Origin: Rhodanobacteraceae bacterium
GTDB lineage: Bacteria; Pseudomonadota; Gammaproteobacteria; Xanthomonadales; SZUA-5
DNA: 64,000 bases
Direction: 5' to 3'
Assembly (NCBI GenBank): GCA_024234055.1
Contig: JACKOW010000001.1
Location: 146,710 to 210,709 of the forward strand
Part shown: one piece after another, positions 3,806 to 56,643 of the stretch
Layout of the letters: every line of letters starts with the position of its first letter
Position numbering within the stretch: position 1 is the stretch's first letter
Translations under genes and position numbers: made by a program
Notes under the pieces: model-generated
Databases searched by the model: none
The model's input: only the letters and a program-made list of their open reading frames with translations
What the model was told of the DNA's origin: nothing

Positions 3806-4456
3806 ATGTTCGGTCCACTCAAATCCCTGTTGTTCCTGGCGGTACTCTGGCTGCCGCTGTCCTTCTTCGTGTGGTTCTATTTCGCCCAGATCTTTGTCAT
3901 GCCGATCGCGGCAATGGCGAACTGGGTGCTGCAGCATCTGCTGCCGAATGTGTTCGCCGGCGTCGAGCAGACCCGCCATATCCTGGCCTTCATCACCACC
4001 CTGCCGATCGATCCGGCGCTGTTGGTGGGGGTGGACACCAGCCAGGGCACGCCGGCGGTGGTGGTCGAGGCCAACCCGATGATCTACGGCTACTGCATCC
4101 CGGTGCTGGTGGGTCTGGTCATGGCCACGCCGCTGCGCAACTGGCAGCGTCTGTGGCAGGTTGGCGTGGGTGTGATCATCCTGTCTGCGGTACAGACCTT
4201 CGGTACCGTCTTTGACGTGCTCAAGAGTCTGGGTTTGCAGGCCGGTGACGAGGCCTCGCGGGTGATCACCGATGCCGGCCTGTCGCTGAACCTCATCGCT
4301 TTCTGCTACCAGTTCGGTTATCTGGTGCTGCCAGCCATCACCCCGGTAATTCTATGGGTGATGTTCAATCAGGCCTTCATCCAGGGTCTGGTCACCACCG
4401 AGGGCAGTGAATTGCCCGACGTGGGAACCAGAAGCACCGAAACGAAGTCTCAGTAG
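3806..4456 (+). CDS. polytopic inner-membrane protein, unknown function
   Basis: 216-aa ORF with about 5-6 hydrophobic segments and the coding-type codon bias of its neighbours. It lies directly upstream of gspE. No family confidently recognised. Confidence 0.6.
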   Translation: MFGPLKSLLFLAVLWLPLSFFVWFYFAQIFVMPIAAMANWVLQHLLPNVFAGVEQTRHILAFITTLPIDPALLVGVDTSQGTPAVVVEANPMIYGYCIPVLVGLVMATPLRNWQRLWQVGVGVIILSAVQTFGTVFDVLKSLGLQAGDEASRVITDAGLSLNLIAFCYQFGYLVLPAITPVILWVMFNQAFIQGLVTTEGSELPDVGTRSTETKSQ

Positions 4457-4468
4457 TCTTGCCCCCTG

Positions 4469-6244
4469 TTGCTGCCATCGAGTGCCCGACGCGTGAATGC
4501 CATCGTTGAATCTGAACACGCCGCCCCGCCGCTGCCGCAGACGGCAGTGGACGTCGAGCATCTCGACGAGCGCATCTGCCAGTTTCTGCTGCGCAAGGGC
4601 AGGCTCAAGGATGCCGATCTGGCACGCGCACGGCGGGTGCACGAGGAGCAGGACGATGTCGGGCTGGTCTCGCTGCTGACCCGCCTGGGCCTGGCCTCCG
4701 AGCGCGATGTCGCCGAGGCCATGAGCGAGTTGCTGGAACTGCCGCTGGTCAACGCCAAGGACGCTCCCGATGTGCCGCCCGCGGGCGTGACCCTCTCGGT
4801 GCGGTTTCTGAAACAGTTCCACATCGTGCCGATCGGCGAGTCCGAGCAGGCCATCCGTCTGCTGGTGGCCGATCCGCAGGATGACTACGCTCGTGATGCC
4901 GTGATTCTTGCCACCGGCAAGCCGGTCGAGATTGCGGTCGGCCTGCGCACGGAGATCGATGATCTGATCGAGCGCTACTACGGTCAGGGTCGCTCCGCGA
5001 TGGGCACCATCGTCGAGAATCTTGCCGGTGAGGAGGGCGGTGGCGAAGATGATGTCGAACATCTGCGCGACCTGGCCTCGGAAGCGCCGGTGATCCGCCT
5101 GGTCAATCTGGTGATGCAGCGGGCAGTCGAGCAGCGCGCCAGTGACATCCATATCGAGCCCTTCGAGAACCGCCTCAAGGTGCGATACCGCATCGATGGC
5201 GTGCTTCAGGAGGTCGAATCGCCGCCCGCCAGTTCGACCGCCGCGGTGATCAGTCGCATCAAGATCATGGCCAAGCTCAACATCGCCGAGCGCCGGCTGC
5301 CGCAGGACGGCCGCATCATGCTGCGCGTGCAGGGCAAGGAACTGGATCTGCGCGTGTCCACGGTGCCGACCAGCTACGGCGAGAGCGTGGTCATGCGTAT
5401 CCTCGATCGCGAAAGCGTGGTGCTGGACTTCAAGGCGCTGGGCTTCACCGACGATTTCCTGCCGCAGTTCCTCAATGTGCTGGAGATGCCGCACGGCATC
5501 ATGCTGGTCACCGGTCCCACCGGTTCGGGCAAGACCACCACGCTGTACACCGCGCTCAGCAAGATCAACACCCCCGAGGTCAAGATCATCACGGTCGAAG
5601 ACCCGGTCGAATATCAGCTCGAAGGCGTCAACCAGATCCAGGTCAAGCCGCAGATCGGCCTCGATTTCGCCGGCGCCCTGCGCTCCATCGTGCGTCAGGA
5701 TCCGGACATCATCATGATCGGCGAAATGCGCGATCTGGAGACCGCCAAGATTGCCATCCAGTCGGCACTCACCGGCCATCTGGTACTGTCGACACTGCAC
5801 ACCAACAACGCCGCCGGCGCGGTCACCCGCCTGCTCGACATGGGCGTGGACGATTACCTGATGTGCTCGACGGTCAACGGCGTGCTGGCGCAACGACTGG
5901 TGCGTCGCCTGGATCGCGAGACCAGCCAGCGCTATCAGGCGCTTCCGGAAGTGGTCGAGGAACACAAGCTGCGCAAGTTCACGCGCCACGATCCGATTTA
6001 TCTGCATCGTCCCGTGGCCTCCGAGCGCAGCGCCACCGGCTATATCGGCCGCACCACGATCATGGAATTCCTGACCATGACCGACCCGATCCGCCGCCTG
6101 GTCATGCAGCACGCCGACCACGGCAAGATCGAAGCCCTCGCCCGCGAGGAAGGCATGCGCACCATGTACGAAGACGGCATCGCCAAGGCCCTGAGCGGAT
6201 TGACGACCATCGAGGAAGTGCTGAGGGTGTGTCAGGAGGGGTAG
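4469..6244 (+). CDS. gspE: type II secretion ATPase GspE
   Basis: Walker A GPTGSGKTTT, Asp/His boxes and an N-terminal T2SSE_N-like domain. TTG 4469 or GTG 4493 are possible starts. Confidence 0.93.
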   Translation: MLPSSARRVNAIVESEHAAPPLPQTAVDVEHLDERICQFLLRKGRLKDADLARARRVHEEQDDVGLVSLLTRLGLASERDVAEAMSELLELPLVNAKDAPDVPPAGVTLSVRFLKQFHIVPIGESEQAIRLLVADPQDDYARDAVILATGKPVEIAVGLRTEIDDLIERYYGQGRSAMGTIVENLAGEEGGGEDDVEHLRDLASEAPVIRLVNLVMQRAVEQRASDIHIEPFENRLKVRYRIDGVLQEVESPPASSTAAVISRIKIMAKLNIAERRLPQDGRIMLRVQGKELDLRVSTVPTSYGESVVMRILDRESVVLDFKALGFTDDFLPQFLNVLEMPHGIMLVTGPTGSGKTTTLYTALSKINTPEVKIITVEDPVEYQLEGVNQIQVKPQIGLDFAGALRSIVRQDPDIIMIGEMRDLETAKIAIQSALTGHLVLSTLHTNNAAGAVTRLLDMGVDDYLMCSTVNGVLAQRLVRRLDRETSQRYQALPEVVEEHKLRKFTRHDPIYLHRPVASERSATGYIGRTTIMEFLTMTDPIRRLVMQHADHGKIEALAREEGMRTMYEDGIAKALSGLTTIEEVLRVCQEG

Positions 6245-6260
6245 TTTGGTCGCGTTTTCC

Positions 6261-6562
6261 GGGGTTCTGAGGCAAGTAAGGTGAAAAGTGAAACGTAAAA
6301 CGTCAATTGAGGCAGCGGCGGGGTTGGGGTTCTGAGGCGGTGCCGCGCCGGGTTTTCTGCAGCGCTGAGGCAAGCAAGGTGAAACGTGAAACGTAAAACG
6401 TCAATTCGGTGGGCGGCGAGCTTGATGGTCCGGGTCCTTCTGGGTCGGTCGGCAGCGCGCGTGCGCATTCGTCACCGCGAGCTCGGAAACAGCCTCAGCC
6501 CAAATTTACGTTTCACGTTTTACGTTTTACTGCTCAGAACGTTTTACGTTTTACCGCTTGCC
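6261..6562. repeat. composite tandem-heptamer inverted repeat, GTAAAAC family (two left arms, two right arms)
   Basis: Left arms GGTGAAA(A/C)GTGAAACGTAAAACGTCAATT at 6280-6308 and 6378-6406, each preceded by CTGAGGCAAG. Complementary arms at 6502-6530 and 6538-6555. Confidence 0.9.
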
Positions 6563-6583
6563 GACCGCAGGGAGGCAAGCTGA

Positions 6584-7798
6584 ATGCCCGCCTTCCGCTT
6601 CAAGGCCGTCGCGCCCAACGGCGAGGTGCTGCAGGGCCAGATGGAGGCCGCCAGCACCGATGAGGTGGTGGCCAAGCTGCACGAGCAGGGCAATCTGCCG
6701 CTGGAGGCGATTCCGGCCGATCAGGCGCAGGGTGCCGGGCTGGGAGCCTTGTTCCGTTCCACCGGCGTGTCGCAAACCGATGTGGCCAATTTCACCCAGC
6801 AGCTGGCTACGCTGGTTGGAGCCGGCTTGCCGCTGGACCGTTCACTGCTGGTGCTCGGAGATCTGGCCGAATCCCCGCGCCTGAAGCGGCTGGTCGATCG
6901 GGTTCGCGATGAAGTGCGCGGCGGTGTCTCGTTGTCGGAGGCGCTGGAGCGTCAGCACGGCGTGTTTTCCCGGCTCTACGTCAACATGGTTCGCGCCGGC
7001 GAAATGGGAGGCACGCTCGATCACACGCTGACCCGACTGTCGCAATACCTGGAGCGCAACCAGGAGCTGAAGTCGAGCGTGGTCTCGGCCATGATCTATC
7101 CATGCATCCTGTTGCTGCTCGCCGGCGGCGCGATGATCTTCCTGCTGGTCTTCGTTATTCCCAACTTCATGCCGCTGTTCGAACAGCTGGGCGGCGAGTT
7201 GCCGATCCTGACCCAGATTGTGCTGGCCTTCGCCAATGCCATCCGCTATGGCTGGTGGGTATTCCTGATCATCGCCATCGCCGTGGTCATGTTCTTCCAG
7301 CGCCAGTTCCGCGACCCGGTCACACGGCTGGTGTGGGATACGCGATTGCTCAATCTGAAATGGATCGGCGATCTGCTGATCAAGATCGACACCGCGCGGT
7401 TTGCGCGCACCGCCGGCACGCTGCTCAAGAACGGCGTACCGTTGCTGTCGGCGATGTCGATCGCCCGCAATGTGCTGGGGAACTCGGCGCTGGGCGAACA
7501 GGTCGATACTGCCAACAAGGATGTGAAGACCGGCGGTGGCCTCGCCCATGCGCTGGCCGCCGGCAAGCGCTTCCCGCGGATGGCCTTGCAGATGATTGCC
7601 GTCGGTGAGGAAACCGGTCAGCTCGACGACATGTTGCTGCGCGCTGCCGATACCTATGACCGAGAGGTCAGAACGACCATCGACCGGCTGATGGCGGCCT
7701 TCGTGCCGGTGTTGACCATCCTGCTGGCAGGTTTCATCGCCGTCATCGTGATTTCCATGGTGACGGCCATCTTGAGTTTGAACGATCTGGTGGCTTGA
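6584..7798 (+). CDS. gspF: type II secretion inner-membrane platform protein GspF
   Basis: 404 aa with the duplicated GspF/PilC domain and three TM segments. RBS GGGAGG lies upstream of the ATG. Confidence 0.93.
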   Translation: MPAFRFKAVAPNGEVLQGQMEAASTDEVVAKLHEQGNLPLEAIPADQAQGAGLGALFRSTGVSQTDVANFTQQLATLVGAGLPLDRSLLVLGDLAESPRLKRLVDRVRDEVRGGVSLSEALERQHGVFSRLYVNMVRAGEMGGTLDHTLTRLSQYLERNQELKSSVVSAMIYPCILLLLAGGAMIFLLVFVIPNFMPLFEQLGGELPILTQIVLAFANAIRYGWWVFLIIAIAVVMFFQRQFRDPVTRLVWDTRLLNLKWIGDLLIKIDTARFARTAGTLLKNGVPLLSAMSIARNVLGNSALGEQVDTANKDVKTGGGLAHALAAGKRFPRMALQMIAVGEETGQLDDMLLRAADTYDREVRTTIDRLMAAFVPVLTILLAGFIAVIVISMVTAILSLNDLVA

Positions 7799-7810
7799 AG
7801 AGGACACGCA

Positions 7811-8338
7811 ATGAACGAAGCAAAGGGTTTCAGTCTGATGGCGCTGCGGCAGCGACTGCTGGCCGGGCTGGTGTTGGCCCCTCGCGAATCCGCGAAGGGA
7901 AACCATGGCCTTGTCTCCGGACGTCGCCGCGTCGGCGTTCATCAGCGCGGCTTCAGCCTGATCGAGATGTTGCTGGTGCTCGGCATCATTGCCTTCATTG
8001 CGACCATGCTGGCGACCAACATCTTCCGAAACAAGGAGCGGGCCAACGTTCAGGCGGCCAAGGCTGGCGTTCGCAAGGTGGCCACCGCCGTGGATCAGTT
8101 CTACCTCGACTCAGGTTCGGCGCCATCCAAGCTGGAAGAACTGGTCACCCGGCCCGGCAATGCCAGCAACTGGGGTGGTCCTTATCTGAATGAGTCGCAG
8201 CTCAAGGATCCCTGGGGCACGCCCTATGTGATCAAGGTGCCGGGTGAGGGCGGCCAACCCTATGCCGTGATCTCGCTGGGCTCCGACAAGGCGCCGGGCG
8301 GGGCCGATACGGCGGCGGATATTGACAATAATCAGTGA
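7811..8338 (+). CDS. gspG: major pseudopilin GspG
   Basis: Prepilin motif QRG|FSLIEMLLVLGIIA and a GspG core (DPWGTPY..ISLGSDKAPGG). The leader is at least 26 aa even from in-frame GTG/TTG near 7871. Confidence 0.9.
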   Translation: MNEAKGFSLMALRQRLLAGLVLAPRESAKGNHGLVSGRRRVGVHQRGFSLIEMLLVLGIIAFIATMLATNIFRNKERANVQAAKAGVRKVATAVDQFYLDSGSAPSKLEELVTRPGNASNWGGPYLNESQLKDPWGTPYVIKVPGEGGQPYAVISLGSDKAPGGADTAADIDNNQ

Positions 8339-8370
8339 TGAGATTGTGAGCTCGCGGCGGGCATACCTGC

Positions 8371-8508
8371 GGGACTCGGGACTCGGGACTCGGGACTCGG
8401 TGTTCTTGCCAGACTCGCCGCTTGTTCCCATTCCTCAGTCTCATTTTTCGCAGATGGGATCGAAGTTGCCGCTTGCCCGAGTCCCGAGTCCCGAATCCCG
8501 AGTCCCGG
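8371..8508. repeat. tandem-heptamer inverted repeat, GGGACTC family
   Basis: GGGACTC x4 at 8371-8400 and CCCGAGT-type x4 at 8476-8508, with a ~75-nt loop. Confidence 0.9.
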
Positions 8509-9014
8509 CGGTTTCAGCGGTCACAGCATCCGGCCTTGTCTGCGGAAGTCATCGCGTCTGCGCCCATCAACAGGGCTTCACCCTCCTCGAAATGATCGTC
8601 GTTCTGCTGATCGTGGCCACGGTCGCGACTCTGCTCGGTACCTCGATCGTCGGCAGGCTGGACAGCGTCAAGGTCGCAACTGCAGCGCGGGACATGAGCG
8701 CCGCGCTGCGTTACACCCGAAGTCAGGCCATCCTCCACCGCGAAGAGAAGTTCCTCGAAGTCAATCTGGAGCAACGCAGCTATTCCGCCGCCGGTCGGCC
8801 TGCCGTGGAACTCCCTGAGGTACTGGAGATCAAATTGCTGACCGCGCAATCGGAAGTGGACAGCGACAAGGTCGGGCGCATCCGTTTCTTCCCGGATGGC
8901 GGATCAACCGGCGGTACGATCACCCTGATTGCCGATGGCCGCCAGTGGAAAGTCAAGGTGTCGTGGCTGACTGGCGAAATAGAACTGGATGATGGGCGGA
9001 AGGAGCGGCGATGA
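8454..9014 (+). CDS. gspH: minor pseudopilin GspH
   Basis: QQG|FTLLEMIVVLLIV plus a GspH-like C-terminus (RIRFFPDGGSTGG). The only standard in-frame starts are 8322, 8454 and 8466, all upstream of or within the repeat element. Confidence 0.75.
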   Translation: MGSKLPLARVPSPESRVPAVSAVTASGLVCGSHRVCAHQQGFTLLEMIVVLLIVATVATLLGTSIVGRLDSVKVATAARDMSAALRYTRSQAILHREEKFLEVNLEQRSYSAAGRPAVELPEVLEIKLLTAQSEVDSDKVGRIRFFPDGGSTGGTITLIADGRQWKVKVSWLTGEIELDDGRKERR

Positions 9015-9520
9015 GGCAGGAAAAAGGAAAAAGGAAAAGGGAAAAGGGAACAGCGCGCGCTGTTGCTCCCCTTTTTCCGTTTTCCGTTTCCCATTTTCCT
9101 GCTGGCGGCCGCCGTCGCGGCCGCCAGCAAGGCTTCACCCTCATCGAAGTGCTGGTGGCATTCATCGTCTTCGTGCTGATCTTCGGCGCGGTGCTGGATG
9201 CGCTGGGCATGGCCATGCGCAATACCCGGCGCTCGGCCGAGGTCAGCGAGGCTGCCTTGTGGGCGCAGTCCAAGCTGGATGCGGTTGGCACGATCGAGGA
9301 GTTGGAAGAGGGCAATGAGCGCGGCGAGTTCAATCAGCAGTTTCGCTGGGAACTGGACATCCGCAAGCAGGAAGTGCCGCGCACCGACGGCCTGGCCAGC
9401 GACACTTTTCCGGTCGACCTCTATCGAGTCGACCTGACCGTCAGCTGGGGCGACGCCAACCAGCGCAAGGAACAGCACTTCATCACACTGCGCTCCAAGT
9501 TGAAGGAGGGGCAGTTTTGA
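9011..9520 (+). CDS. gspI: minor pseudopilin GspI
   Basis: QQG|FTLIEVLVAFIV. The ATG overlaps the gspH stop (ATGA). No other ATG/GTG/TTG lies in frame before the cleavage motif. Confidence 0.8.
   Translation: MRQEKGKRKREKGTARAVAPLFPFSVSHFPAGGRRRGRQQGFTLIEVLVAFIVFVLIFGAVLDALGMAMRNTRRSAEVSEAALWAQSKLDAVGTIEELEEGNERGEFNQQFRWELDIRKQEVPRTDGLASDTFPVDLYRVDLTVSWGDANQRKEQHFITLRSKLKEGQF
9019..9099. repeat. tandem-heptamer inverted repeat, GGAAAAG family
   Basis: GGAAAAA/GGAAAAG x4-5 at 9019-9051, GC loop GCGCGCGC, imperfect complement CCTTTTTCCGTTTTCCGTTTCCCATTTTCC at 9069-9099. Confidence 0.85.
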
Positions 9521-10290
9521 ACGCAGCAGTAAAACGTGAAACGTCAAACGTCAACAAGAGCCAAAGCCATGTTGATGCGCGGCTGTCATTGACGTTTGAC
9601 GTTTTACGTTTTACCCGCCGCAATCCGCGGGGTGCGCAGCGGGGCTTCACCCTCATCGAACTCCTCGTCGCCATGACCCTGGTGGCGTTGTTGATGACCC
9701 TGGTCTACGAGGGCCTGCGCAGTGGTCAGCGGGCGGCGGAGACGGGGCAGGCCTTCATCGATCGCACCAATCGTTTGCGCATCACCCAGGAATTCATCCG
9801 CATGCAGGTGGGCAGGTTGATGCCGCTGGCCTACAAGCAGGACACCACCAGCGGCAAGCTCTACCTGTTCGAGGGTGATCACGAGAAGATCCGCTATGTG
9901 GCACCGATGCCCGGCTACCTGGGCTACGGCGGCACCTATGTGCAGGAGCTGGAGTTGATCCGCGATGGCCGTGACCGCTCGCTGGTGTTCCGGCACTGGC
10001 TGCACAATGGTTTTGACGAAAAGAAGATCGACCAGTCCGAACCACCGATTCTGCTGCTGTCCGGCATCCGCGATGGTGGCTTCCGATTCAAGGGATTGAA
10101 CCCGGAAGGCAAGGTGGGGGACTGGAGCGAGCGCTGGGAGGATTCCCAGCTGACGCCGCTGATCATCGAGCTGGATCTGACCATGAGCGCCGAGAGCCGC
10201 ATGGACTGGCCCGTGCTCGACGTAGTGATGATGGTCGACGGTGGCGCCACCCGCGGCTTCAATGCCGGCTTCTTCCCCTCCGGCGGATGA
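9517..10290 (+). CDS. gspJ: minor pseudopilin GspJ
   Basis: QRG|FTLIELLVAMTLVALL. Position in the operon fits. The alternative TTG start at 9589 still includes the right repeat arm. Confidence 0.8.
   Translation: MNAAVKRETSNVNKSQSHVDARLSLTFDVLRFTRRNPRGAQRGFTLIELLVAMTLVALLMTLVYEGLRSGQRAAETGQAFIDRTNRLRITQEFIRMQVGRLMPLAYKQDTTSGKLYLFEGDHEKIRYVAPMPGYLGYGGTYVQELELIRDGRDRSLVFRHWLHNGFDEKKIDQSEPPILLLSGIRDGGFRFKGLNPEGKVGDWSERWEDSQLTPLIIELDLTMSAESRMDWPVLDVVMMVDGGATRGFNAGFFPSGG
9529..9614. repeat. tandem-heptamer inverted repeat, GTAAAAC family
   Basis: GTAAAAC GTGAAAC GTCAAAC GTCAAC (9529-9555) pairs with ATTGAC GTTTGAC GTTTTAC GTTTTAC (9588-9614). Confidence 0.92.
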
Positions 10291-11192
10291 GAACTCCCAT
10301 GCGTAAACAGCAGGGCATCGCGCTGGTGATGGTGCTGTGGGTCTCGGTACTGATCGCCGTGCTGCTGGCCAGCTTCAGCCTGAGCGCGCGGGTGGAGGCC
10401 CTGCAGGGGCGCAATCTGCTGGATGCGACCCGGGCGCGCTATGCCGCCGAGGCAGGACTGCATCGCGCCGTGTACGAGATGCGCAGCTCGAATCCGGAGT
10501 TGCGCTGGGTGGCCGATGGCCGGGTCTATCCGATGGAATTCGAAGGCGCCGAGATCGAGATCGAGATCTACGACGAGACCGGCAAGGTCGATCTGAATGT
10601 GGCCGATCCGATCCTGCTCGGTGCACTGTTCGAATCGGGCGGCTTGTCCAGGCCCGATGCCGAAGCGCTGGCCGCAGCCGTGGTTGATTGGCGAGATCCG
10701 GATGATTTGATCAGCCCCAACGGTGCCGAAGAGGGCGAATACCGCGCCGCTGGACGCAACTACAAGCCGCGCAACGCACCGTTCGAGACTGTTTCCGAGC
10801 TGCAGCAGGTACTGGGCATGAGTTTCGAGCTGTACCGGGAACTTGAGCCCTCGCTGACCATCTATTCAGGCAGGGCACAGCCCAATCCGGCCTTCGCCTC
10901 CCCTGAAGTTCTTGCCCTGATTCCCGGTATGAGCCCTGATCTGGTCCAGCTATTCGTGCAACAGCGGCAGCAGGCCATCGGTGGCCCTGCGCCATCCGCA
11001 CTCCCGCTTGCCTTGCCCGACGGTAGTCCCGTGGTGGCGCAGGGCGGGGGCCTTACGTACACTATCCGGTCCCGTGCGACACTGCCGGGCGGAGCGAATG
11101 CCGGTCTGGAAGCAACCGTGCGCCTAGGCGCGAGCATGGTGGCGCGCCGGCCCTTTCGCATCGTCCGCTGGCGCGATGGTGAATTCCGTTAA
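10287..11192 (+). CDS. gspK: minor pseudopilin GspK
   Basis: QQGIALVMVLWVSVLIAVL N-terminus without Phe/Glu5, about 300 aa, typical GspK helix-hairpin-helix region. ATGA overlap with gspJ. Confidence 0.85.
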   Translation: MRTPMRKQQGIALVMVLWVSVLIAVLLASFSLSARVEALQGRNLLDATRARYAAEAGLHRAVYEMRSSNPELRWVADGRVYPMEFEGAEIEIEIYDETGKVDLNVADPILLGALFESGGLSRPDAEALAAAVVDWRDPDDLISPNGAEEGEYRAAGRNYKPRNAPFETVSELQQVLGMSFELYRELEPSLTIYSGRAQPNPAFASPEVLALIPGMSPDLVQLFVQQRQQAIGGPAPSALPLALPDGSPVVAQGGGLTYTIRSRATLPGGANAGLEATVRLGASMVARRPFRIVRWRDGEFR

Positions 11193-11207
11193 CCTATCCC
11201 AGGCTAT

Positions 11208-12338
11208 ATGCTCGAGCTGATCCAGAAGCCATGGCGGCGCCTGAAGCAGCGCTACGAGAAGAGTGGGTTCGCCCAATTCTTGTCGTGGTGGCGCTCTGAA
11301 CTGCTGTCCGCACTGCCCCCCGCCTGGCGCGAGTGGCTCGCGGCCGAGTTGCCCGTGGTTACGCTGTCCCCCGTTACCGACGGCTGGCAGTTGCGGCGGG
11401 TGCGCGCCGGACGTGTGGAAGTCGAGGAAACGGTGGCGGCCGATCGTGACGCCCTGATCGGTGGTGCTGAGCGCCTGCGGGCGGGACAGGAACACGCGCC
11501 GCGTCAGGTGCTGATGTTGCCCGCCGGGCGCACGCTGCGGCGCAGACTGACTCTGCCGCTGGCCGCCGAGGAACACCTGGCTTCGGTGTTGGCTTTCGAG
11601 ATGGATCGGCAAACGCCCTTCCGCGCCGACCAGATCTATTTCGACCATCGTATCCAGAAACGCGATCCCGCTGCCCGGACCATGCTGGTTGAGCTGCTGG
11701 CGGTACCGCGAGCGGTGCTCGATGAATTGCTGCAGAAGGTCGGCAATCTCCCGCTGGACGCCGCCGACGTGGCGATCGCCGAGTTGCCCGCCGGTTTCAA
11801 CCTGCTGCCGGCCGAGCGGCGTGCGCGCCGAGTCGACAAGCGACTGCGGGTCAACCTGATCCTGGGCGCTACCGCTGTGGCCCTGATCTGGCTGGTCATG
11901 TGGCAATCGCTGGCCCTGCGCGAACAGGCCATCGAGCATCTGAACGAAGACAAGGCCCAATCCAGCGCCGCGGCCATGCAAAGCGCCGAACTCAAGCGGC
12001 AGCTGCGTGATGCCATCGAAGGCGCCAGTTTTCTCGCCGACAAGAAGGCCGAACAGGCGGTCACCGTCGATGTGTTGGCCGAGATTACTCGGCTGGTGCC
12101 CGACGACACCTGGCTGGAGCGACTGTCCTTCATCGGCAATCAGGTGCAGTTGCAGGGGCAATCAGCCCGCGCTGACAAGCTGATCGGCATCCTGACCGAT
12201 TCCCGTTGTCTGTCCAAACCGCAGTTCCAGGGGATCATCCAGCCCGATGGAGCCACTGGCAAGGAGCGTTTCAGCCTTGCCGCCGACCTCAAGACCGGAG
12301 CCTGCCATGGCACTGACACTGCTGCCGGCTCCCGGTAA
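11208..12338 (+). CDS. gspL: GspL-like assembly protein (cytoplasmic domain + TM + PilN-like periplasmic domain)
   Basis: 376 aa with a single mid-protein TM (LILGATAVALIWLVMW). Its position after gspK matches xps order. Confidence 0.65.
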   Translation: MLELIQKPWRRLKQRYEKSGFAQFLSWWRSELLSALPPAWREWLAAELPVVTLSPVTDGWQLRRVRAGRVEVEETVAADRDALIGGAERLRAGQEHAPRQVLMLPAGRTLRRRLTLPLAAEEHLASVLAFEMDRQTPFRADQIYFDHRIQKRDPAARTMLVELLAVPRAVLDELLQKVGNLPLDAADVAIAELPAGFNLLPAERRARRVDKRLRVNLILGATAVALIWLVMWQSLALREQAIEHLNEDKAQSSAAAMQSAELKRQLRDAIEGASFLADKKAEQAVTVDVLAEITRLVPDDTWLERLSFIGNQVQLQGQSARADKLIGILTDSRCLSKPQFQGIIQPDGATGKERFSLAADLKTGACHGTDTAAGSR

Positions 12339-12915
12339 GGGCAAGCCCGTTGCCATCGGCCTGGCGCTGATGGTGCTGGTATTGGCCTATTTCCTGATGT
12401 TCCATGGGTTCATCACCCAGCACCTGGCGTATGCCGACGAGATTTCGGATCTGAAGGAGAGCGAGCTGCGTTTCCGCCAGATTGCCGAGCAGCGTCCGCA
12501 GATCGAGCAGCGGCTGGCCGAAGTCCGCCAGTTTCAGGCCGGGGCGAACTATTTTCTGCCCGAGGACAGCTTCGATCTGGCCGCGGCCAACCTCAACAGC
12601 CAGCTCAAGCAGATCATCGCCGACAAGGCCCGCGATCCGCAGCGCTGTCAGCTGATCAGCAGCCAGAACGAACGCCCGACCGCGCCCGAGCCCTACCAGC
12701 GCGTGGTGGTCAAGGTGCGCATGCGCTGTGATCTGGATGATCTGACCGAAATTCTCTACGAACTGGAAAACGCCACGCCCTTTTTGTTCGTGGCCGAACT
12801 CAATCTGTATCAGCAGCTGATGTTCCAGGGCGGCATGCCGCAACCCAATCTCGGCGACATGGATGCGCGCTTTGATGTCTACGGCTACATCCGCAAGCCC
12901 GGAGGTCAGGGATGA
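12307..12915 (+). CDS. gspM: GspM-like assembly protein
   Basis: Start moved to ATG 12307 (MALTLLP..), giving an N-terminal TM (VAIGLALMVLVLAYFLMF). Bitopic, about 200 aa, positioned after gspL. Confidence 0.6.
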   Translation: MALTLLPAPGKGKPVAIGLALMVLVLAYFLMFHGFITQHLAYADEISDLKESELRFRQIAEQRPQIEQRLAEVRQFQAGANYFLPEDSFDLAAANLNSQLKQIIADKARDPQRCQLISSQNERPTAPEPYQRVVVKVRMRCDLDDLTEILYELENATPFLFVAELNLYQQLMFQGGMPQPNLGDMDARFDVYGYIRKPGGQG

Positions 12916-13631
12916 AGCGTGATCTCGGCCAGATGACAACGATTGTCCTTGGAGGCATCTGCGGCGTGTTTGCGCTGATTGCCGTGCTGCAATCGCTGGG
13001 CGTGGGTTCCGGTTATCGCTTGCTGAGTGACGAATCCAGCGAACTTGACGCCGATCTGATGAAACCGATGCAGCAGGTGGCGTTCAACTTGCCGGATTTC
13101 TCTCAATACATCGAGATATCGCAGCGGCCGCTGTTCAACAACGACCGCAAGCCGCGTCCGATCGAGAACAAGGATGCCGGTCAGGTAGCCAGTGACGCGC
13201 CGCCGCCGGTTCCTCTGGATGCGACCTTGCTCGGCGTGCTGATCGATCCCGATCACCAGGTGGCCATCCTCCGCGTCAATACGTCCAGCGCCGTGATCCG
13301 GGTACGCCAGGGCATGCCGTTGCCGGACGACCTCGCCGGTTGGACGCTGCAGGAACTATCGCCGCGCAAGGCCGTCTTTGACGGGGGGCCGCAACAGGGC
13401 AGCGCCGAGCTCAAGCTGGACATGTCGAAGACGCCCACCGGCGCGCCGATGCCGCCGCCGGCTGCAGTGCCGCCGCCGGGGCAGCCCGGTGTGGCTCAAC
13501 AGGCGCAGCCACAGCCAATGCCGGCCGACGAGGCCGCGCGTCAGGCGGAAGTGCAGAGGATCATCGAGCAGCGCCGCGCGCAGATGCGTGCCGAGGCTGA
13601 GAAGATGAATCAGCAGCAAGGGAAGCAGTAG
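12912..13631 (+). CDS. GspC/XpsN-like secretin-interacting protein (no PDZ)
   Basis: N-terminal TM, central HR/PilP-like segment (LLGVLIDPDHQVAILRV), Pro/Gln-rich tail. It occupies the xpsN slot before the secretin. Confidence 0.55.
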   Translation: MKRDLGQMTTIVLGGICGVFALIAVLQSLGVGSGYRLLSDESSELDADLMKPMQQVAFNLPDFSQYIEISQRPLFNNDRKPRPIENKDAGQVASDAPPPVPLDATLLGVLIDPDHQVAILRVNTSSAVIRVRQGMPLPDDLAGWTLQELSPRKAVFDGGPQQGSAELKLDMSKTPTGAPMPPPAAVPPPGQPGVAQQAQPQPMPADEAARQAEVQRIIEQRRAQMRAEAEKMNQQQGKQ

Positions 13632-27608: not shown

Positions 27609-27630
27609 GCTGGAACACGGCGTCACACCG

Positions 27631-27708
27631 ACAACCCACTAACCACAACCCGCAACCCACAACCCACAACCAACAACCCACAACCAACAACCAACAACCC
27701 ACAACCAG
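27631..27708. repeat. tandem heptamer array ACCCACA/ACCAACA (single arm)
   Basis: About 11 contiguous 7-nt units ending 3 nt from the stop codon of the VIT/vWA gene. No complementary arm found nearby. Confidence 0.9.
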
Positions 27709-33220: not shown

Positions 33221-33778
33221 TTATTGCGCGTTGACCCGTTGCGCTTCGAGCAGACTGTCCAGCTGTCCGGCGCGATCGCGGGTGATGTTGGCCAGGGCCT
33301 CGGCGTGCATCGGTTGGAACATGGTGCCCGACATGGCGCCATAGGCCGTGTCCAGTGCCTTGTATTCGGCATCGCGAAAGGCTAGCCATTTCCGCTGCGA
33401 GATGCGCAGTTGTTCCTTCGCCTCCGGTCCGAGCTCTGCCATCAGTTCACGCCAAAGCCGATTGAGCTCCCGGTCCCAGGCCGCCTGGGATTGATCAATG
33501 CAGCGACGCATGCCCTGCGTGCTCATGCCCTCGGGCGTTTCCATGCAGCGCGTGAGTTCGGCTTCGATCGGATGCTGGTCGGGGAAGGCGTCGTTGGCAA
33601 AGACCAGCGCCGGGGACAGAGTCAGTACCGAGACTGCGAGCCAGGAACAAAAGCGTGGCAGGGGATGGGCGATGGAGCGGGGCAGGGGGCGGGGGGCACG
33701 GGGCAGGGGAAGAGCCGCGCCTGGGTGGTGCTTGTTTGCCTCTTGTCCGGAAAGCGTTCTTGAACTGTGGTCAATCAT
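33221..33778 (-). CDS. DUF1311 / LprI-like periplasmic protein
   Basis: C-terminal QRKWLAFRDAEYK helix motifs and a signal-like segment at residues 45-62. The only standard start (33778) adds a 40-aa extension that reads through a G-run repeat. Confidence 0.65.
   Translation of the reverse strand: MIDHSSRTLSGQEANKHHPGAALPLPRAPRPLPRSIAHPLPRFCSWLAVSVLTLSPALVFANDAFPDQHPIEAELTRCMETPEGMSTQGMRRCIDQSQAAWDRELNRLWRELMAELGPEAKEQLRISQRKWLAFRDAEYKALDTAYGAMSGTMFQPMHAEALANITRDRAGQLDSLLEAQRVNAQ
33679..33709 (+). repeat. G-run heptamer array (G-quadruplex-type motif)
   Basis: GGGGCAGGGGGCGGGGGGCACGGGGCAGGGG. Confidence 0.85.
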
Positions 33779-33805
33779 GTTCTCTGCCTCGTATGCAAAA
33801 ACATG

Positions 33806-33890
33806 GCGTCATTGCGAGGAGCGCAGCGACGAAGCAATCCTGTGTCTCGCGACCTGCATCTGGATTGCTTCGCTTCGCTCGCAATGACGC
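33806..33890. repeat. inverted repeat GCGTCATTGCGAGGAGCGCAGCGACGAAGCAATCC / GGATTGCTTCGCTTCGCTCGCAATGACGC
   Basis: Arms of about 30 nt around a 21-nt loop. Fragments of the same motif (GGATTGCTTCG, GCTCGCAATGACG) recur at 27216-27226 and 27596-27608. Confidence 0.85.
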
Positions 33891-33907
33891 TTCCGATGAG
33901 AGCATTT

Positions 33908-33966
33908 CCCGAGTCCCGAGTCCCGAGTCCCGAGTCCCGAGTCCCGAGTCCCGAGTCCCGTGCCCC
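33908..33966. repeat. CCCGAGT tandem heptamer array (half element of the GGGACTC family)
   Basis: About 7.5 contiguous units ending 6 nt from the lpdA stop codon. No GGGACTC arm nearby. Confidence 0.9.
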
Positions 33967-35801: not shown

Positions 35802-36025
35802 GTCGCGGATGAATCAGCTCCCACAGGGAAGTGGCGTCCCGGGCCTCTGTGGGAGCGGGCTCTGCCCGCGATGCTCTTGCCGGGTGTGGCGAACGGGCAG
35901 GTCGCGGATGAATCAGCTCCCACAGGGAAGTGGCGTCCCGGGCCTCTGTGGGAGCGGGCTCTGCCCGCGATGCTCTTGCCGGGTGTGGCGAACGGGCAGG
36001 TCGCGGATCAATCCGCTCCCACAGG
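35802..36025. repeat. 99-bp tandem repeat (2.25 copies) carrying REP-type palindromes
   Basis: Units at 35802-35900 and 35901-35999 are near-identical, with a partial third copy. Each contains GCTCCCACAG..CTGTGGGAGCGGGCTCTGCCCGCGAT. Confidence 0.92.
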
Positions 36026-48570: not shown

Positions 48571-49824
48571 ATGGACCTCGATCTGATCCACTACCGTGAG
48601 CTGGACGCGCGTCTGGTGTCGCTGGTCAAGGACATCAAGATGCTCAGCACACTGAGCTGGCCCAAACGCGCGCAGGAAGAATTTCTGGCAGCCTGGCGCG
48701 CCGGAAATCCTTATCTGCCCGAGGTCAAGTACAAGAAGTTTGACTACAGCGACCGTCGCGCCGGTCTGGCGGAGATCTTCGATCAGTGCGAGCCGGATCA
48801 TCCGATCGGCCAGTACCTGCAGAACACCGTGATCTCCTGGCAGGTGGCCACGCTGTTGCTGGAACGCCTGGGTACGCCGCAGATGACCGAATACTCGATC
48901 AATCTGTACGGTCGCCCGGGCGATCAGATCGCCGGATCGGCGGTCAACAACCTGCAGGCGGCCGAGCATTTCATCAGCGTGGCCGATGACGTCATGGGCA
49001 ACAGCGCGCTCACTGAAACCGAATACTGCCTGTCGGCCGATATTCTCAAGAACGAGATGGAACACCGGCTGGGCGAGGTCTTCACCCAGGACAAGGTGTC
49101 CATCGAGATCGATCCGGATCTGGTGGCCAAGGCCGCCGCCGGCCCCACGCGCATCCGCCTGCGTGCCGGCACCTGCTTTTCCGACTACGATCTCTCGCAG
49201 CTGCTGGAGCACGAGGCCTTCGTGCACTCGCTGACCTCACTGAATGGGCGCGCCCAGAGCAATCTCGGCAGTCTGGGCCTGAATTCGCCCCGGATCACCG
49301 CCACCCAGGAAGGGCTGGCGGTGTTTGCCGAACTGGTCACCGGCTCGATCGACATTACCCGGATGAAGCGCATCTCGCTGCGCATCCAGGCGATCCATAT
49401 GGCGCTGCATGGCGCCAATTTCATCGAGGTGTTCCGCTTCTTCCTGGACCAGGGACAGACCGAAGCCGAGAGCTTCACGTCAACCATGCGCGTGTTCCGA
49501 GGTGCACCGACCACTGGCGGGCATGCCTTCACCAAGGACACGGTCTATCTGCACGGCCTCCTGTCGGTGCATACCTTTTTCCGGTGGGCGCTGCGTTCGG
49601 GCAAGCTGGAACTGGCCCAGCACCTGTTTGCCGGCAAGATGACGCTGCAGGATGTGGTGGGCCTGGAGCCCTTCGTACAATCCGGATTCATCGATCCGCC
49701 GAAGTATCTGCCGCCATGGATGCGCCGCAGCAACGGCCTTGCCGGCTATCTGTCCTTCTCGCTGTTCGTCAATCGCATCCGCCTCGATCAGGTCGAACGA
49801 GAGCATGTGCTGATGGGTGTGTAG
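48571..49824 (+). CDS. DUF1704 / QEGLA-motif protein
   Basis: Contains HEAFVH and the diagnostic TQEGLAVFAE motif. 417 aa. Confidence 0.8.
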   Translation: MDLDLIHYRELDARLVSLVKDIKMLSTLSWPKRAQEEFLAAWRAGNPYLPEVKYKKFDYSDRRAGLAEIFDQCEPDHPIGQYLQNTVISWQVATLLLERLGTPQMTEYSINLYGRPGDQIAGSAVNNLQAAEHFISVADDVMGNSALTETEYCLSADILKNEMEHRLGEVFTQDKVSIEIDPDLVAKAAAGPTRIRLRAGTCFSDYDLSQLLEHEAFVHSLTSLNGRAQSNLGSLGLNSPRITATQEGLAVFAELVTGSIDITRMKRISLRIQAIHMALHGANFIEVFRFFLDQGQTEAESFTSTMRVFRGAPTTGGHAFTKDTVYLHGLLSVHTFFRWALRSGKLELAQHLFAGKMTLQDVVGLEPFVQSGFIDPPKYLPPWMRRSNGLAGYLSFSLFVNRIRLDQVEREHVLMGV

Positions 49825-49825
49825 A

Positions 49826-50215
49826 AGGAACTTGCGTCGCGACCGTGGCGTCGGCAACGGTGGCGAAAATCGGGAACCGCGGTGAGCTGTTTTCAATAGC
49901 GGAACGCAGAGAACGCCGAGAGGCGCTGTTTGTTGTAGGAGCGACCTTGCGTCGCGACCGTGGTATCGGGCAGCTGTGGCGAAGATCGGGAACCGCGGTG
50001 AGTGGGTCGCAAAAGCCGAACGCGGAGAACGCAGAGGGGCGCGGAGAACGCAGAGAGGAGCTTGTCCAGATCCAATTTGCTTTTCTCTGCGTTCTTGGCG
50101 GCCCCTGCGTTCTCTGCGTTGTTGCTCTTCCCCGCCACCGAGCGACACGATCAGCTGGTGTCGTATGCCGATGGCTCCGGTCGCGCCGCAAGGGCGCTCC
50201 TACGGGTGAACCGGC
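49826..50215. repeat. composite REP region: ~95-bp duplicated segment (offset ~113 bp), CGCAGAGAACGC inverted repeat, TGTAGGAGCG palindrome pair
   Basis: 49831-49922 resembles 49945-50038. GCGGAGAACGCAGAG x2 pairs with TCTCTGCGTTCT..CTGCGTTCTCTGCG. TTGTAGGAGCG (49934) pairs with GCGCTCCTACGGG (50196). Confidence 0.85.
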
Positions 50216-51777: not shown

Positions 51778-52194
51778 TCAGTGCTTGCCGCGCAGCTTGT
51801 TGATCAGCTGCAACTGGGCAGCGGCCTCTGCCAGACGGGCCTGGGCTTCGGCAATCTCGATGGCGTCCGTGCGGTTGGCGATGGCCTTCTCCGCATCTTC
51901 CTTGGCCTGCTTGGCCGCAGCTTCGTCCAGATCCGCCGCGCGCACCGCGGTATCGGTGAGGATGGTGACGACGCTGGGCTGCACTTCCATGATGCCGCCG
52001 GACACGTACAGGAACAGCTCTTCGTCATTGGGCTGAATCACCCGCACCTGACCGGGCTTCAGGCGCGTGATCAAGGGCGCATGGCGCGGCGCAATACCGA
52101 GCTCACCCATCTCGCCGGTAGCTACCACAAGCTTGGCCTCACCGTGAAACACGGAGGCTTCGGCACTGACGACATCGACGCGGATGGTGGACAT
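51778..52194 (-). CDS. atpC: F1 ATP synthase epsilon subunit
   Basis: 138 aa, conserved N-terminal beta sandwich, last gene of the atp operon. Confidence 0.95.
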
Positions 52195-52263
52195 GGGGCT
52201 GGTGCTCCGAAACTGGTTTTTGGTGTTGCTGGGCTGCGGCGCCCGGTAAGCGTCTGCGGCCGG

Positions 52264-52345
52264 GTAAAACGTAAAACGTAAAACGTCAATGAAAGCGAAA
52301 AGCTCGGCGCTGGCGAAATTGACGTTTTACATTTTACGTTTTACC
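52264..52345. repeat. tandem-heptamer inverted repeat, GTAAAAC family (atpD-atpC spacer)
   Basis: GTAAAAC x3 + GTCAAT (52264-52290) pairs with ATTGAC GTTTTAC ATTTTAC GTTTTAC (52319-52344). Confidence 0.92.
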
Positions 52346-52403
52346 TGTGCCGCAGGGCATGAGATGCCGGTGACGCCGAGATATGCGTCACCGGCACGGC
52401 AGA

Positions 52404-53952
<1,549 letters not shown>

Positions 53953-53956
53953 GCTC

Positions 53957-54820
53957 TTAAACTGCTGCCGCGCCGCCGACGATTTCGCTGATCTCCTGCG
54001 TGATCGCGGCCTGACGAGCCTTGTTGTAGATCAGCGTGAGATTGTCGATGGCCTTGGTGGCGTTGTCGCTGGCCGACTTCATGGCCACCATGCGGGCGGC
54101 GTGTTCGGAGGCCAAATTTTCCAGTACGGCCTGATACACCAGGCTTTCGATGTAGCGCGACAGCACGTGATCCATGATCTCGGGCGCGCTGGGCTCGTAC
54201 AGATAATCCCACTGATGCTTGCTGTCCAGATCGTCGGTGGGCAGCAGCGGCAGCAGCTGGTCGACCGTGATCTTCTGGGTCATGGTGTTGACGAAATCAT
54301 TGTAGGCCACGAACAGACGATCGACTCGGCCGTCCATGTAGCTGTCCAGCATCACCTTGATGGCGCCGATCAGCTGATCCACCCGCGGTTTCTCCCCGAG
54401 GTGGGTGACCGAGCCGACCATGTCGACCTTGAGGCGCTTGAAGAAGGCCGTGGCCTTGGCGCCGATGCAGACCACTTCGATCTGCGCGCCCTTGGCCTGC
54501 CACTCGCGGATCTCGCCGAGCAGCTTGCGGAACAGATTGGCGTTGAGGCCGCCGCACAGGCCGCGATCGGTGGATACGATGACGTAGCCGACATGCGACA
54601 CCTCGTCACGCTCGACGAGGAAGGGGTGCTGGTACTCGGTGTTGGCCTTGGCGACGTGGCCAATGACCTGGCGCATCAGCTGCGCGTACGGACGCGAAGC
54701 CTTCATCAGCTCCTGCGCACGACGAATCTTGCTCGCCGACACCATTTCCAGAGCACGCGTCACCTTGCGGGTGTTCTGCACGCTCTTGATCTTGGTTCGA
54801 ATTTCTCTTGCGCCTGCCAT
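53957..54820 (-). CDS. atpG: F1 ATP synthase gamma subunit
   Basis: [32 protein letters not shown]-terminus, 287 aa. Confidence 0.95.
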
Positions 54821-54840
54821 AGGGTGCTCGCTTCGCTCGC

Positions 54841-54950
54841 GGTGAAAAGTGAAAGGTGAAACGTGAAAGGGGCTTCCTAGTGGGTGGGAACTGAGGGCTT
54901 TTAGTTGACGTTTAACGTTTCACGTTTAACTCTACTTGCCTCAACTCCGA
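54841..54950. repeat. tandem-heptamer inverted repeat, GTGAAAC variant (atpA-atpG spacer)
   Basis: GGTGAAAAGTGAAAGGTGAAACGTGAAAGG pairs with GTTGACGTTTAACGTTTCACGTTTAAC. The flank CTACTTGCCTCA matches the flank of the 6261-6562 element. Confidence 0.85.
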
Positions 54951-54971
54951 CCTCCGTGCGGAGTGTCCCGC

Positions 54972-56519: not shown

Positions 56520-56643
56520 GACGGTGGTTTCCTGTAGTGGCGACACCCGGGTCGCGACCGAATCAAATTGTGTTGCTGCAATCTTGCTGCAGCCCTTAGT
56601 TCCAGTATCGGCGCGGCGGTCAGGCCGCAGCCGTGAGCAGCAC

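Follow-up and report, generated by a model that had tools for sequence, protein, structure and literature searches.

Heptamer-repeat hairpins in the pseudopilin leaders of a Rhodanobacteraceae type II secretion operon are very probably translated and cleaved off with the leader

The window analyzed here is a 64,000-nucleotide (nt) stretch of DNA from a Rhodanobacteraceae bacterium (assembly GCA_024234055.1, contig JACKOW010000001.1, positions 146,710–210,709 of the forward strand). Window positions 4469–13631 form an Xps-type type II secretion system (T2SS) operon with the gene order gspE-F-G-H-I-J-K-L-M-N-D. Three pseudopilin genes of the operon, gspH, gspI and gspJ, contain hairpins composed of tandem 7-nt units (heptamers) in the segment that precedes the prepilin cleavage motif. 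The hairpins are very probably translated and then removed with the leader, as judged from sequence comparison. The genes, leaders and hairpins are located as follows, with the cleavage site marked by an arrow.

4469–6244, + strand: gspE
6584–7798, + strand: gspF, start codon ATG 6584
7798–7804, + strand: Shine-Dalgarno-like AAGAGGA upstream of the gspG start, from sequence
7811–8338, + strand: gspG, major pseudopilin; leader 7811–7951, cleavage G↓F at 7949–7954
7823–7846, + strand: degenerate motif copy KGFSLMAL in the gspG leader (cleavage motif RGFSLIEM at 7946–7969)
7907–7951 (gspG) and 8532–8576 (gspH), + strand: 3′ leader cassette GLVSGRRRVGVHQRG↓F, from sequence comparison
8346–9014, + strand: gspH, probable start GTG 8346; leader 8346–8576
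8365–8512, + strand: CGGGACT/CCCGAGT heptamer hairpin of the gspH leader; arms 8365–8400 and 8477–8512
9000–9005, + strand: Shine-Dalgarno AAGGAG, 5 nt before ATG 9011, from sequence
9011–9520, + strand: gspI; leader 9011–9133
9016–9102, + strand: GGAAAAG/CTTTTCC heptamer hairpin of the gspI leader; arms 9016–9048 and 9070–9102
9101–9128, + strand: second, GC-rich 12-bp hairpin of the gspI leader, from RNA folding
9503–9509, + strand: Shine-Dalgarno AAGGAGG of gspJ, within the codons of the invariant GspI C-terminus KLKEGQF
9517–10290, + strand: gspJ; leader 9517–9645 from TTG 9517
9529–9614, + strand: GTAAAAC/GTTTTAC heptamer hairpin of the gspJ leader; arms 9529–9562 and 9581–9614
ending at 11192, + strand: gspK, with the L, M, N and D genes beyond

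The identities of the pseudopilin genes were assigned using NCBIfam profiles. GspG passes the curated threshold of TIGR01710 (95.6 bits versus a cutoff of 88.85), and the profile match begins at residue 46. XpsH, XpsI, GspJ and GspK are the top matches of the other genes, each under its own cutoff. The gspH product best matches XpsH (NF047827) from residue 76, the gspI product XpsI from residue 39 and the gspJ product the GspJ family NF006453. The prepilin GFxxxE domain TIGR02532 is above its cutoff in GspG, GspH, GspI and GspJ and covers residues 41–64 of the gspJ product. The cleavage motifs RG↓FSLIE (GspG), QG↓FTLLE (GspH), QG↓FTLIE (GspI) and RG↓FTLIE (GspJ) stand before the hydrophobic helix, and every orthologue conserves Gly-1 and the basic R/Q residues in front of it. 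A sequence identical to the window is found in a metagenome-assembled genome (MAG) labelled Xanthomonadales bacterium (GCA_020442815.1, contig JAGRJI010000029.1; locus L156). The Pfam context in L156 and close relatives comprises T2SSE, T2SSF, T2SSG, GspH, T2SSK, PilN, T2SSM_b, XpsN and the secretin.

The period of 7 in the leader arrays was confirmed with Tandem Repeats Finder (3.3–4.7 copies, with the arms paired). The hairpin arms extend over 36 nt in gspH (92% complementary, unit CGGGACT ×4.4), 33 nt in gspI (85%, unit AGGAAAA ×4.7) and 34 nt in gspJ (88%, GTAAAAC-type unit ×3.3). The RNA minimum free energies of the gspH, gspI and gspJ leaders are −86.6, −69.6 and −63.1 kcal/mol with fold z-scores of −8.8, −7.3 and −6.5, respectively, and none of 200 shuffled sequences is as stable. 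The hairpins begin shortly after the upstream gene, 27 nt past the gspG stop, 2 nt past the gspH stop and 9 nt past the gspI stop. In the GGAAAAG family, the structure is kept in nine copies, and five pairs are altered on both sides. The 12-bp hairpin beside the heptamer hairpin of gspI is perfect (GCTGGCGGCCGC...GCGGCCGCCAGC) and encodes AGGRRRGRQ, the basic end of the leader that immediately precedes the cleavage site.

Other classes of structured element were also considered. Rfam gave no match at gathering thresholds across the whole window, and a promoter and terminator scan of the window yielded nothing above expectation. Intrinsic terminators were rejected: three terminator-like sites were found versus 3.6 expected, and none matches any full leader hairpin. 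A terminator-like site at 8383–8400 lies inside the left arm of the gspH hairpin. An integron attC-like reading of GTAAAAC/GTTTTAC was dropped, given that the core-site consensus does not fit.

The available start codons place the hairpins inside the reading frames. In gspI, ATG 9011 is the sole in-frame ATG, GTG or TTG and generates a 41-amino-acid (aa) leader, MRQEKGKRKREKGTARAVAPLFPFSVSHFPAGGRRRGRQQG↓F; a scan of this leader for in-frame CTG, ATT, ATC and ATA found none. The gspJ leader is 43 aa from the first TTG (9517) and 19 aa from the last (9589). ATG 9011 overlaps the gspH stop (ATGA), and TTG 9517 overlaps the gspI stop. The last standard start of gspH is TTG 8466, which gives a 37-aa leader; besides GTG 8346, gspH has the downstream start ATG 8454 and an upstream in-frame TTG 8322 (85-aa leader). 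For gspG, the leader has no fewer than 26 aa, and 47 aa if counted from the conserved ATG 7811. The gspG ribosome-binding site and ATG are found 11–18 nt past the gspF stop both in orthologues with short leaders and in those with long leaders. No in-frame NTG or ATN codon lies 3′ of the right arm in gspH, gspI or gspJ.

A first-pass annotation of the window had arrived at the same single start, translated hairpin and 41-aa leader for gspI, at a latest gspJ start of TTG 9589 (leader of 19–43 aa) and at a gspG leader of at least 26 aa, and the start-codon scan bears out all three. It had named a non-standard start past the repeats as the observation that would speak against translation; none is available in gspH, gspI or gspJ. 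For gspH, its last start at TTG 8466 holds, but the translated part probably extends beyond the right arm that it had named. GTG 8346 is the most probable start because the starts in relatives lie at +7 to +13 from the gspG stop with junction lengths of 1 mod 3, as described below. From this start, gspH would probably have a 77-aa leader with both hairpin arms translated. The hydrophilic leaders have net charges of +7 (GspG), +10 (GspI), +6 (GspJ) and +2 (85-aa gspH reading frame). The window leaders (47 aa in GspG, ∼77 aa in GspH, 41 aa in GspI and 43 aa in GspJ) exceed the 6–26 aa of characterized systems, and the longest leader, that of L153 gspH, has 115 aa and two hairpins.

The phase of the insertions was analyzed in a related DNA set of 22 loci (L001, L081–L092 and L153–L161, including L156 with the window sequence). 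The close relatives were obtained from a metagenome scan and eight exact-protein look-ups. In a GspI-alignment scan of genome contigs, L001 is the sole close relative among the matches listed, and the other 79 loci are distant T2SS or type IV pilus genes. A GspI homologue search provided 263 homologues.

The distance from the gspH stop to the first mature gspI codon is 23, 26, 38, 113, 119, 125, 134, 143, 146, 182, 197, 212, 221 or 233 nt, and the corresponding gspI-to-gspJ distance is 17, 26, 65, 125, 128, 131, 134, 143, 155, 194, 203, 278 or 311 nt, with two unrelated elements at 125 nt. All 14 distinct gspH-to-gspI lengths and all 13 distinct gspI-to-gspJ lengths in the 22 loci are 2 mod 3. 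The gspI start is located at −1 or +2 from the gspH stop in the 21 clade loci; the exception is the outgroup L092, with gspI starts 36 and 60 nt past the gspH stop. The gspJ start is at −1 or +2 from the gspI stop in all 22 loci. In gspH, the phase follows the start codon. Loci with the start at +7 to +13 from the gspG stop have distances of 238, 127, 355, 229, 142, 178 and 235 nt (all 1 mod 3), and those with the start at −1, overlapping the gspG stop (GTGA; ATGA in L092), have distances of 194, 218, 227, 137, 203 and 188 nt (all 2 mod 3).

The same sites have received insertions repeatedly. At least nine mutually unalignable inserts occupy one site in gspI and at least 11 occupy one site in gspJ, which supports the proposal of the first-pass annotation that the cleaved leader is a permissive landing site. 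If only unrelated inserts are counted, the probability that all are in phase by chance is ∼(1/3)^20. The coding frame is open in 43 of the 44 distinct expanded H, I and J junctions, and the other two frames are open in 22 and 12. Any phase would be expected of an untranslated spacer; only one phase is seen, which argues against an untranslated state.

The gspJ-to-gspK junction serves as a control within the same operon because GspK is without a cleaved leader; gspK starts a few nt past the gspJ stop. The expanded gspJ-to-gspK junctions (265, 114, 115, 226 and 78 nt) are of mixed phase, and the insertions place stops in the gspK frame in four of five cases. GTAAAAC is the only heptamer family whose tandem array cannot be read through, since the unit contains TAA. 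In the gspJ leader, TAA would come into frame at one unit, and precisely this unit has the form GTCAAAC (codon TCA), paired with GTTTGAC in the partner arm. At the same position in seven other GTAAAAC-family arms of the window, six have GTAAAAC or GTTAAAC, with TAA present, and the seventh has GTCAAAC. Members of this family are found in the atp operon (51778–56699, − strand), whose atpA-atpG, atpG-atpD and atpD-atpC spacers each contain one GTAAAAC-family hairpin that is non-coding and has stops (hairpins at 52263–52345, 53884–53951 and 54841–54930). The T2SS operon also contains a hairpin element in a non-coding spacer.

6251–6560, + strand: compound GTGAAAC-family heptamer hairpin element in the gspE-gspF spacer (gspE stop 6244, gspF ATG 6584)

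The atp spacers suggest that intercistronic hairpins are a general operon feature in the window genome.

Leader length varies widely among relatives. In the close GspI clade (60–100% identity), the median called leader is 39 aa long and 31 of 51 proteins have leaders above 26 aa; the median in more distant GspI homologues is 17 aa. The long GspI leaders encode KGKGK...FPFSFS (GGAAAAG), GTRDSGLGTR...SPESRVPSP (GGGACTC), GNRESGIGNR...FPIPRSPFP (GGGAATC), CGLWVVGCG...HNPKPTTHNP (TGTGGGT) or GPGTRDP...GSRVPGPG (GGGACCC), and some other GspI orthologues have leaders of the MRRQRG↓F type. Across lineages, one site accommodates GGAAAAG, GGGACTC, GGGAATC, GGGACCC, TGTGGGT, GGTTCCT and other families; in L159 and L161, the leaders of gspH, gspI and gspJ contain GGGAATC. 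The deepest-branching L091 and L092 have GspI/GspJ leaders of 9/9 and 9/7 aa (MRRSARQRG↓F and MPSPMRMRG↓F in L091) and no period-7 arrays in the locus. The GspI leader is also 9 aa in L088, L089, L090 and L160, and the T2SS leaders of a Xanthomonas MAG are 13–28 aa without repeats. Short leaders in orthologues without repeats (L091, L088, L089, L090 and L160) are what the first-pass annotation had anticipated for insertion-derived length; its normal T2SS leader of 5–15 aa is slightly low, given the 13–28 aa of the Xanthomonas MAG. In a distant GspI group (P0073–P0118), of which several members are labelled Wenzhouxiangella, the leaders reach up to 52 aa and have a common motif, GPGSxSGTPCRxxRQGG↓F. 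Long modular leaders may be spread more widely in this part of the Gammaproteobacteria.

The elements also differ between close lineages. The mature pseudopilins of the window and of L153, L155 and L157 are 96–98% identical in protein and 87–89% in DNA, and such strong protein conservation at this level of DNA identity indicates that the pseudopilin genes are functional. The gspI leader element is GGAAAAG in the window and L153, GGGACCC in L155 (212 nt) and GGGACTC in L157 (182 nt). In gspJ, the window and L157 have GTAAAAC, and L153 and L155 have GGAAAAG. Differing heptamer families are thereby observed in the same leader of lineages that are 87–96% identical in flanking DNA. The DNA identity of 87–89% for L153 and L155 puts element turnover on a between-species, not a between-strain, timescale. 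L157 has 96% DNA identity to window 8867–10354 over gspI–gspK and 86% in the gspH 3′ end. Its gspI leader element is not that of the window, and the identity shift at the leader points to a recombination breakpoint there.

The leader of gspG is of a different type. In orthologues, it comprises 12–14 aa (L085, L089, L091 and L160) or 30–55 aa, always in frame and from the same start. The gspG leader of the window has no heptamer array and folds with a z-score of −1.7 (12 of 200 shuffles as good). A heptamer hairpin is absent from gspG in 16 of 16 loci and is usually present in gspH, gspI and gspJ; this absence would be consistent with hairpins being costly to translate in a gene of high expression. 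The upstream motif copy KGFSLMAL is identical to the cleavage motif RGFSLIEM at 16 of 21 nt. Of the six other long-leader orthologues, five (L153, L155, L159, L161 and L001) retain its FSL, and L158 has MSAL at this position. The 45-nt cassette GLVCGxxRVxxHQQG↓F, located directly 5′ of the cleavage site, has only two copies in the window, those of gspG and gspH. In other genomes, it is found in gspJ of L159 (∼4560–4640) and L161 (∼4440–4525) and in gspI of L158 (∼4180–4260). This distribution suggests that leader segments have been exchanged between paralogous pseudopilin genes. The first-pass annotation had taken the gspG motif copy as the scar of a ∼110-bp insertion that duplicated its target. 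The similarity of the two motifs is real, but a transposon target-site duplication is unsupported: the leader has no heptamer array, its fold is shuffle-like and the cassette is common to paralogues. Ectopic recombination at the conserved G-F-S/T-L codons, bringing in the cassette, would be at least as likely an explanation of the gspG copy.

The explanation as a whole, that heptamer hairpins filtered for phase and stops are translated within cleaved pseudopilin leaders, is likely to be correct. The window genome and its relatives contain many small hairpin elements with arms of about four tandem 7-nt units, the unit differing by family. Their usual place is a few to ∼60 nt past a stop codon between co-directional genes. 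Because the pseudopilin genes overlap (NTGA), the region past each stop is made up of the leader codons of the next gene, and the habitual position of the elements coincides with them. In prepilins, the leader stays cytoplasmic and is removed after Gly (Berry and Pelicic, PMC4471445). The pseudopilin leaders, hydrophilic and likewise cytoplasmic, would be cut after Gly-1 by prepilin peptidase. Elements would survive in this segment only if they lengthen it by a multiple of 3 nt without bringing a stop into frame, and the insertions observed are of this kind, L001 gspH excepted. Translation would then proceed from the original coupled start codon and generate leaders of 41 aa (GspI), 43 aa (GspJ) and ∼77 aa (GspH). 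The repeat peptide would be discarded with the leader, the mature pseudopilin would be unaltered and the insertion would be nearly neutral. A tandem heptamer cycles through the three frames and encodes the same 7-aa repeat at any insertion phase, which makes heptamer elements unusually easy to accommodate. Initiation would rely on the terminating upstream ribosome to open the stem 5–12 nt past the start codon.

Several observations weigh against this explanation. Stems of −60 to −87 kcal/mol that begin 5–12 nt past the start codon should hinder initiation, and leaders of 40–115 aa are beyond the 6–26 aa range described for prepilin peptidase (PMC4471445). Internal in-frame starts are present at several loci, including gspG, gspH and gspJ of the window, and shorter pseudopilin precursors may be produced from them in addition. 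The gspH leader frame in the gspG-to-gspH junction of L001 (5266–5429; 160 nt, 1 mod 3) is interrupted by a TGA and contains neither ATG, GTG nor TTG. A 1-nt indel in the neighboring G/C runs, which adjoin the TGA site, would bring in a suitable ATG from another frame, and the contig name suggests a long-read assembly; the defect of L001 gspH may be an indel or assembly error or a real pseudogene. Every relative is an uncultured MAG or metagenome contig, and the junctions come from related genomes, so the events are partly non-independent.

Four alternatives were weighed against the explanation. Under the first, the hairpins are untranslated intercistronic RNA, the true starts are internal or non-canonical and lie downstream, and the long open reading frames (ORFs) are an artefact of stop-poor, GC-rich repeats. 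In the public L156 record, gspH and gspI are called from within the mature protein and gspJ from the equivalent of TTG 9589, internal starts exist in gspG, gspH and gspJ of the window, and most heptamer units are stop-free in all frames and on both strands, as are ∼50% of possible heptamers. However, no in-frame NTG or ATN follows any right arm, and gspI has no start but ATG 9011. Composition can neither yield uniform 2 mod 3 junction lengths nor account for the consistent openness of the coding frame alone. The pattern of untranslated insertions, with mixed phase and stops, is seen at the gspJ-to-gspK junction, and GspH and GspI as publicly called lack the cleavage motif and some of the N-terminal hydrophobic segment. 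We therefore regard untranslated hairpins as very improbable. Strong stem-loops inside coding sequences are bypassed by the ribosome in T4 gene 60 and at mitochondrial byp elements, and the leader hairpins resemble these in being strong stem-loops inside a coding sequence. Bypassing would leave the repeat undecoded. It does not need a length that is a multiple of 3, and a stop usually follows the take-off codon; the inserts here are in phase and stop-free with no stop past the start region, and bypass was rejected as scarcely credible. It is hardly any more probable that the long leaders are ancestral and the short ones arose by deletion, with the site not an insertion hotspot. The gspI leader of L081 (49 aa) and all long gspG leaders are without recognizable heptamers, and the common 3′ cassette suggests that some leader material was inherited. 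Nevertheless, the leaders are short in the deepest-branching L091 and L092, 13–28 aa in the Xanthomonas MAG and 17 aa at the median in distant homologues, and mutually unalignable heptamer families at one site require multiple gains.

It is unlikely, if easier to entertain than the preceding alternatives, that the hairpins have been put to use, either as coupling gates or mRNA stabilizers that set a ratio of high GspG to low minor pseudopilins or, through heptamer slippage, in phase variation. If so, a change of one 7-nt unit would shift the frame and act as a switch for single minor pseudopilins and hence turn the T2SS on or off. Repetitive extragenic palindromic (REP) elements in Escherichia coli operons stabilize upstream mRNA. 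Between the window and L001 (∼75–80% DNA identity in the flanks), the arms are kept, but the loop and tail are no longer recognizably similar. A compensatory change distinguishes the two in an outer unit (GTAAAAC/GTTTTAC versus GTGAAAC/GTTTCAC), and in the GGAAAAG family five pairs are altered on both sides. The restriction of the hairpins to gspH, gspI and gspJ, never gspG (16 loci), points in the same direction. Homogenization among family copies, however, explains arm conservation equally, and L091, L089 and L160 have 9-aa leaders without hairpins in operons that are equally conserved. No copy-number variants were seen among near-identical sequences.

Their organization places the window hairpins in the class of heptamer inverted repeats described in Xanthomonas. 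In Xanthomonas, ∼185 GGGAATC-type arrays per genome have been described, with four units preferred and 70–75 convergent inverted pairs (Rehm et al. 2015, PMC4692102). The arrays lie at a mean of 28 nt past the upstream ORF and are 89–93% intergenic, and Xcc repeat #29 between xpsE and xpsF matches the position of the window gspE-gspF element (PMC4692102). Both groups have 7-nt units in about four copies, form convergent pairs capable of stem-loop formation and reside just past the upstream ORF between co-directional genes. The elements here differ in being located inside the gspH, gspI and gspJ leaders, although those at gspE-gspF and in the atp operon are intergenic, and in the coexistence of many unit families in one genome. 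The Xanthomonas study explains the repeats as G-quadruplex formers, and the translation of intragenic repeats is not analyzed there (PMC4692102). Compared with its GGGNATC quadruplex consensus, GGGACTC has G3 tracts, whereas GGAAAAG and GTAAAAC do not. The preference for about four units is also observed in these A-rich arrays without G3 tracts (9018–9050, 9529–9554, 52264–52289 and others), which makes a G-quadruplex unlikely as the general rationale of the heptamer class.

The closest precedent in structure is thus the Xanthomonas heptamer inverted repeat, and the closest in behavior is the Rickettsia palindromic element (RPE). RPEs are selfish palindromes of ∼100–150 bp within ORFs that keep the frame and are translated, and the protein tolerates the added residues (Ogata et al. 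2000, as reviewed in PMC10969869). The RPE peptide stays in the mature protein; the insertions here lie in an N-terminal segment that is cleaved off and would leave the mature protein unaltered. The arms here are tandem heptamers in another host lineage, and with these differences homology is not expected. The elements also resemble the REP elements, bacterial interspersed mosaic elements (BIMEs) and REPINs of gamma-proteobacteria, which are abundant transcribed intercistronic hairpins of operons with several families per genome and concerted evolution. REP units differ from the direct heptamer arrays here in that they are short imperfect palindromes mobilized by the transposase RAYT. Type IVb and Tad pilins (15–30 aa; Flp1 26 aa) share the class III signal peptide, the longer hydrophilic leader and the peptidase cut after Gly. 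Their leaders are family-typical and non-repeat, and those here are 41–115 aa, variable among close relatives and attached to type IVa-like T2SS pseudopilins. A literature search for long pseudopilin leaders, signal-peptide repeats and repeat-derived prepilin leaders found no prior description within its limits.

Translation of phase-filtered hairpins in cleaved leaders has consequences for annotation and for the secretion pathway. In the public L156 record, the gspI call (121 aa) begins at a GTG within the mature region and the gspH call (140 aa) begins 15 nt past the cleavage site, so that the start of the hydrophobic segment is lost in GspH and much of the segment is lost in GspI. Repeat-bearing leaders appear to mislead automatic start prediction, and mis-called starts may recur wherever such repeats are common. 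These cases suggest that class III leaders tolerate expansion from under 10 to over 100 residues of near-arbitrary repeat sequence in genes that stay under strong purifying selection. Stretched leaders would set a natural bound on the tolerance required of the signal recognition particle/Sec pathway and prepilin peptidase. They would also provide a natural example of selection filtering selfish hairpins by phase and stops, with a control junction in the same operon. Cleaved N-terminal targeting peptides may in this way act as safe harbors, as suggested by the prepilin leaders and by the N-terminal region of a Sec signal in a DUF1311 gene elsewhere in the window.

33221–33778, − strand: DUF1311/LprI-family gene, with ATG 33778 as the sole standard start upstream of its signal-like segment

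A CTGCCCC array (33679–33709) lies in the coding frame between ATG 33778 and the signal sequence of the DUF1311 protein. The N-terminal regions of orthologues range from a few to ∼60 aa; the short form is MKSILRTIC..., and different lineages have the repeat peptides RFPIPHSPFP, RAPCPVPR and VPGPGSRVP. These data come from called protein starts only and are hence less secure than the gsp junctions. The sole start before the array and the different N-terminal repeat peptides agree with the pattern that the first-pass annotation had noted in this gene. On the − strand at 33800–33900, a long palindrome (GTCATTGCGAGCGAAGCGAAGCAATCC...GGATTGCTTCGTCGCTGCGCTCCTCGCAATGAC), a repeat element of a different type, is placed between a (GGGACTC)×7.7 array (33907–33960) and the DUF1311 start. 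Other repeats of the window are located at 35802–36025, 49820–50042 and 27627–27706. They include a 99-nt tandem repeat (×2.3) with a GTGGGAGCGGGCTCTGCCCGCGAT core that is REP-like in look, a 116-nt tandem repeat (×1.9) and a single (ACCCACA)×11 array without an inverted partner.

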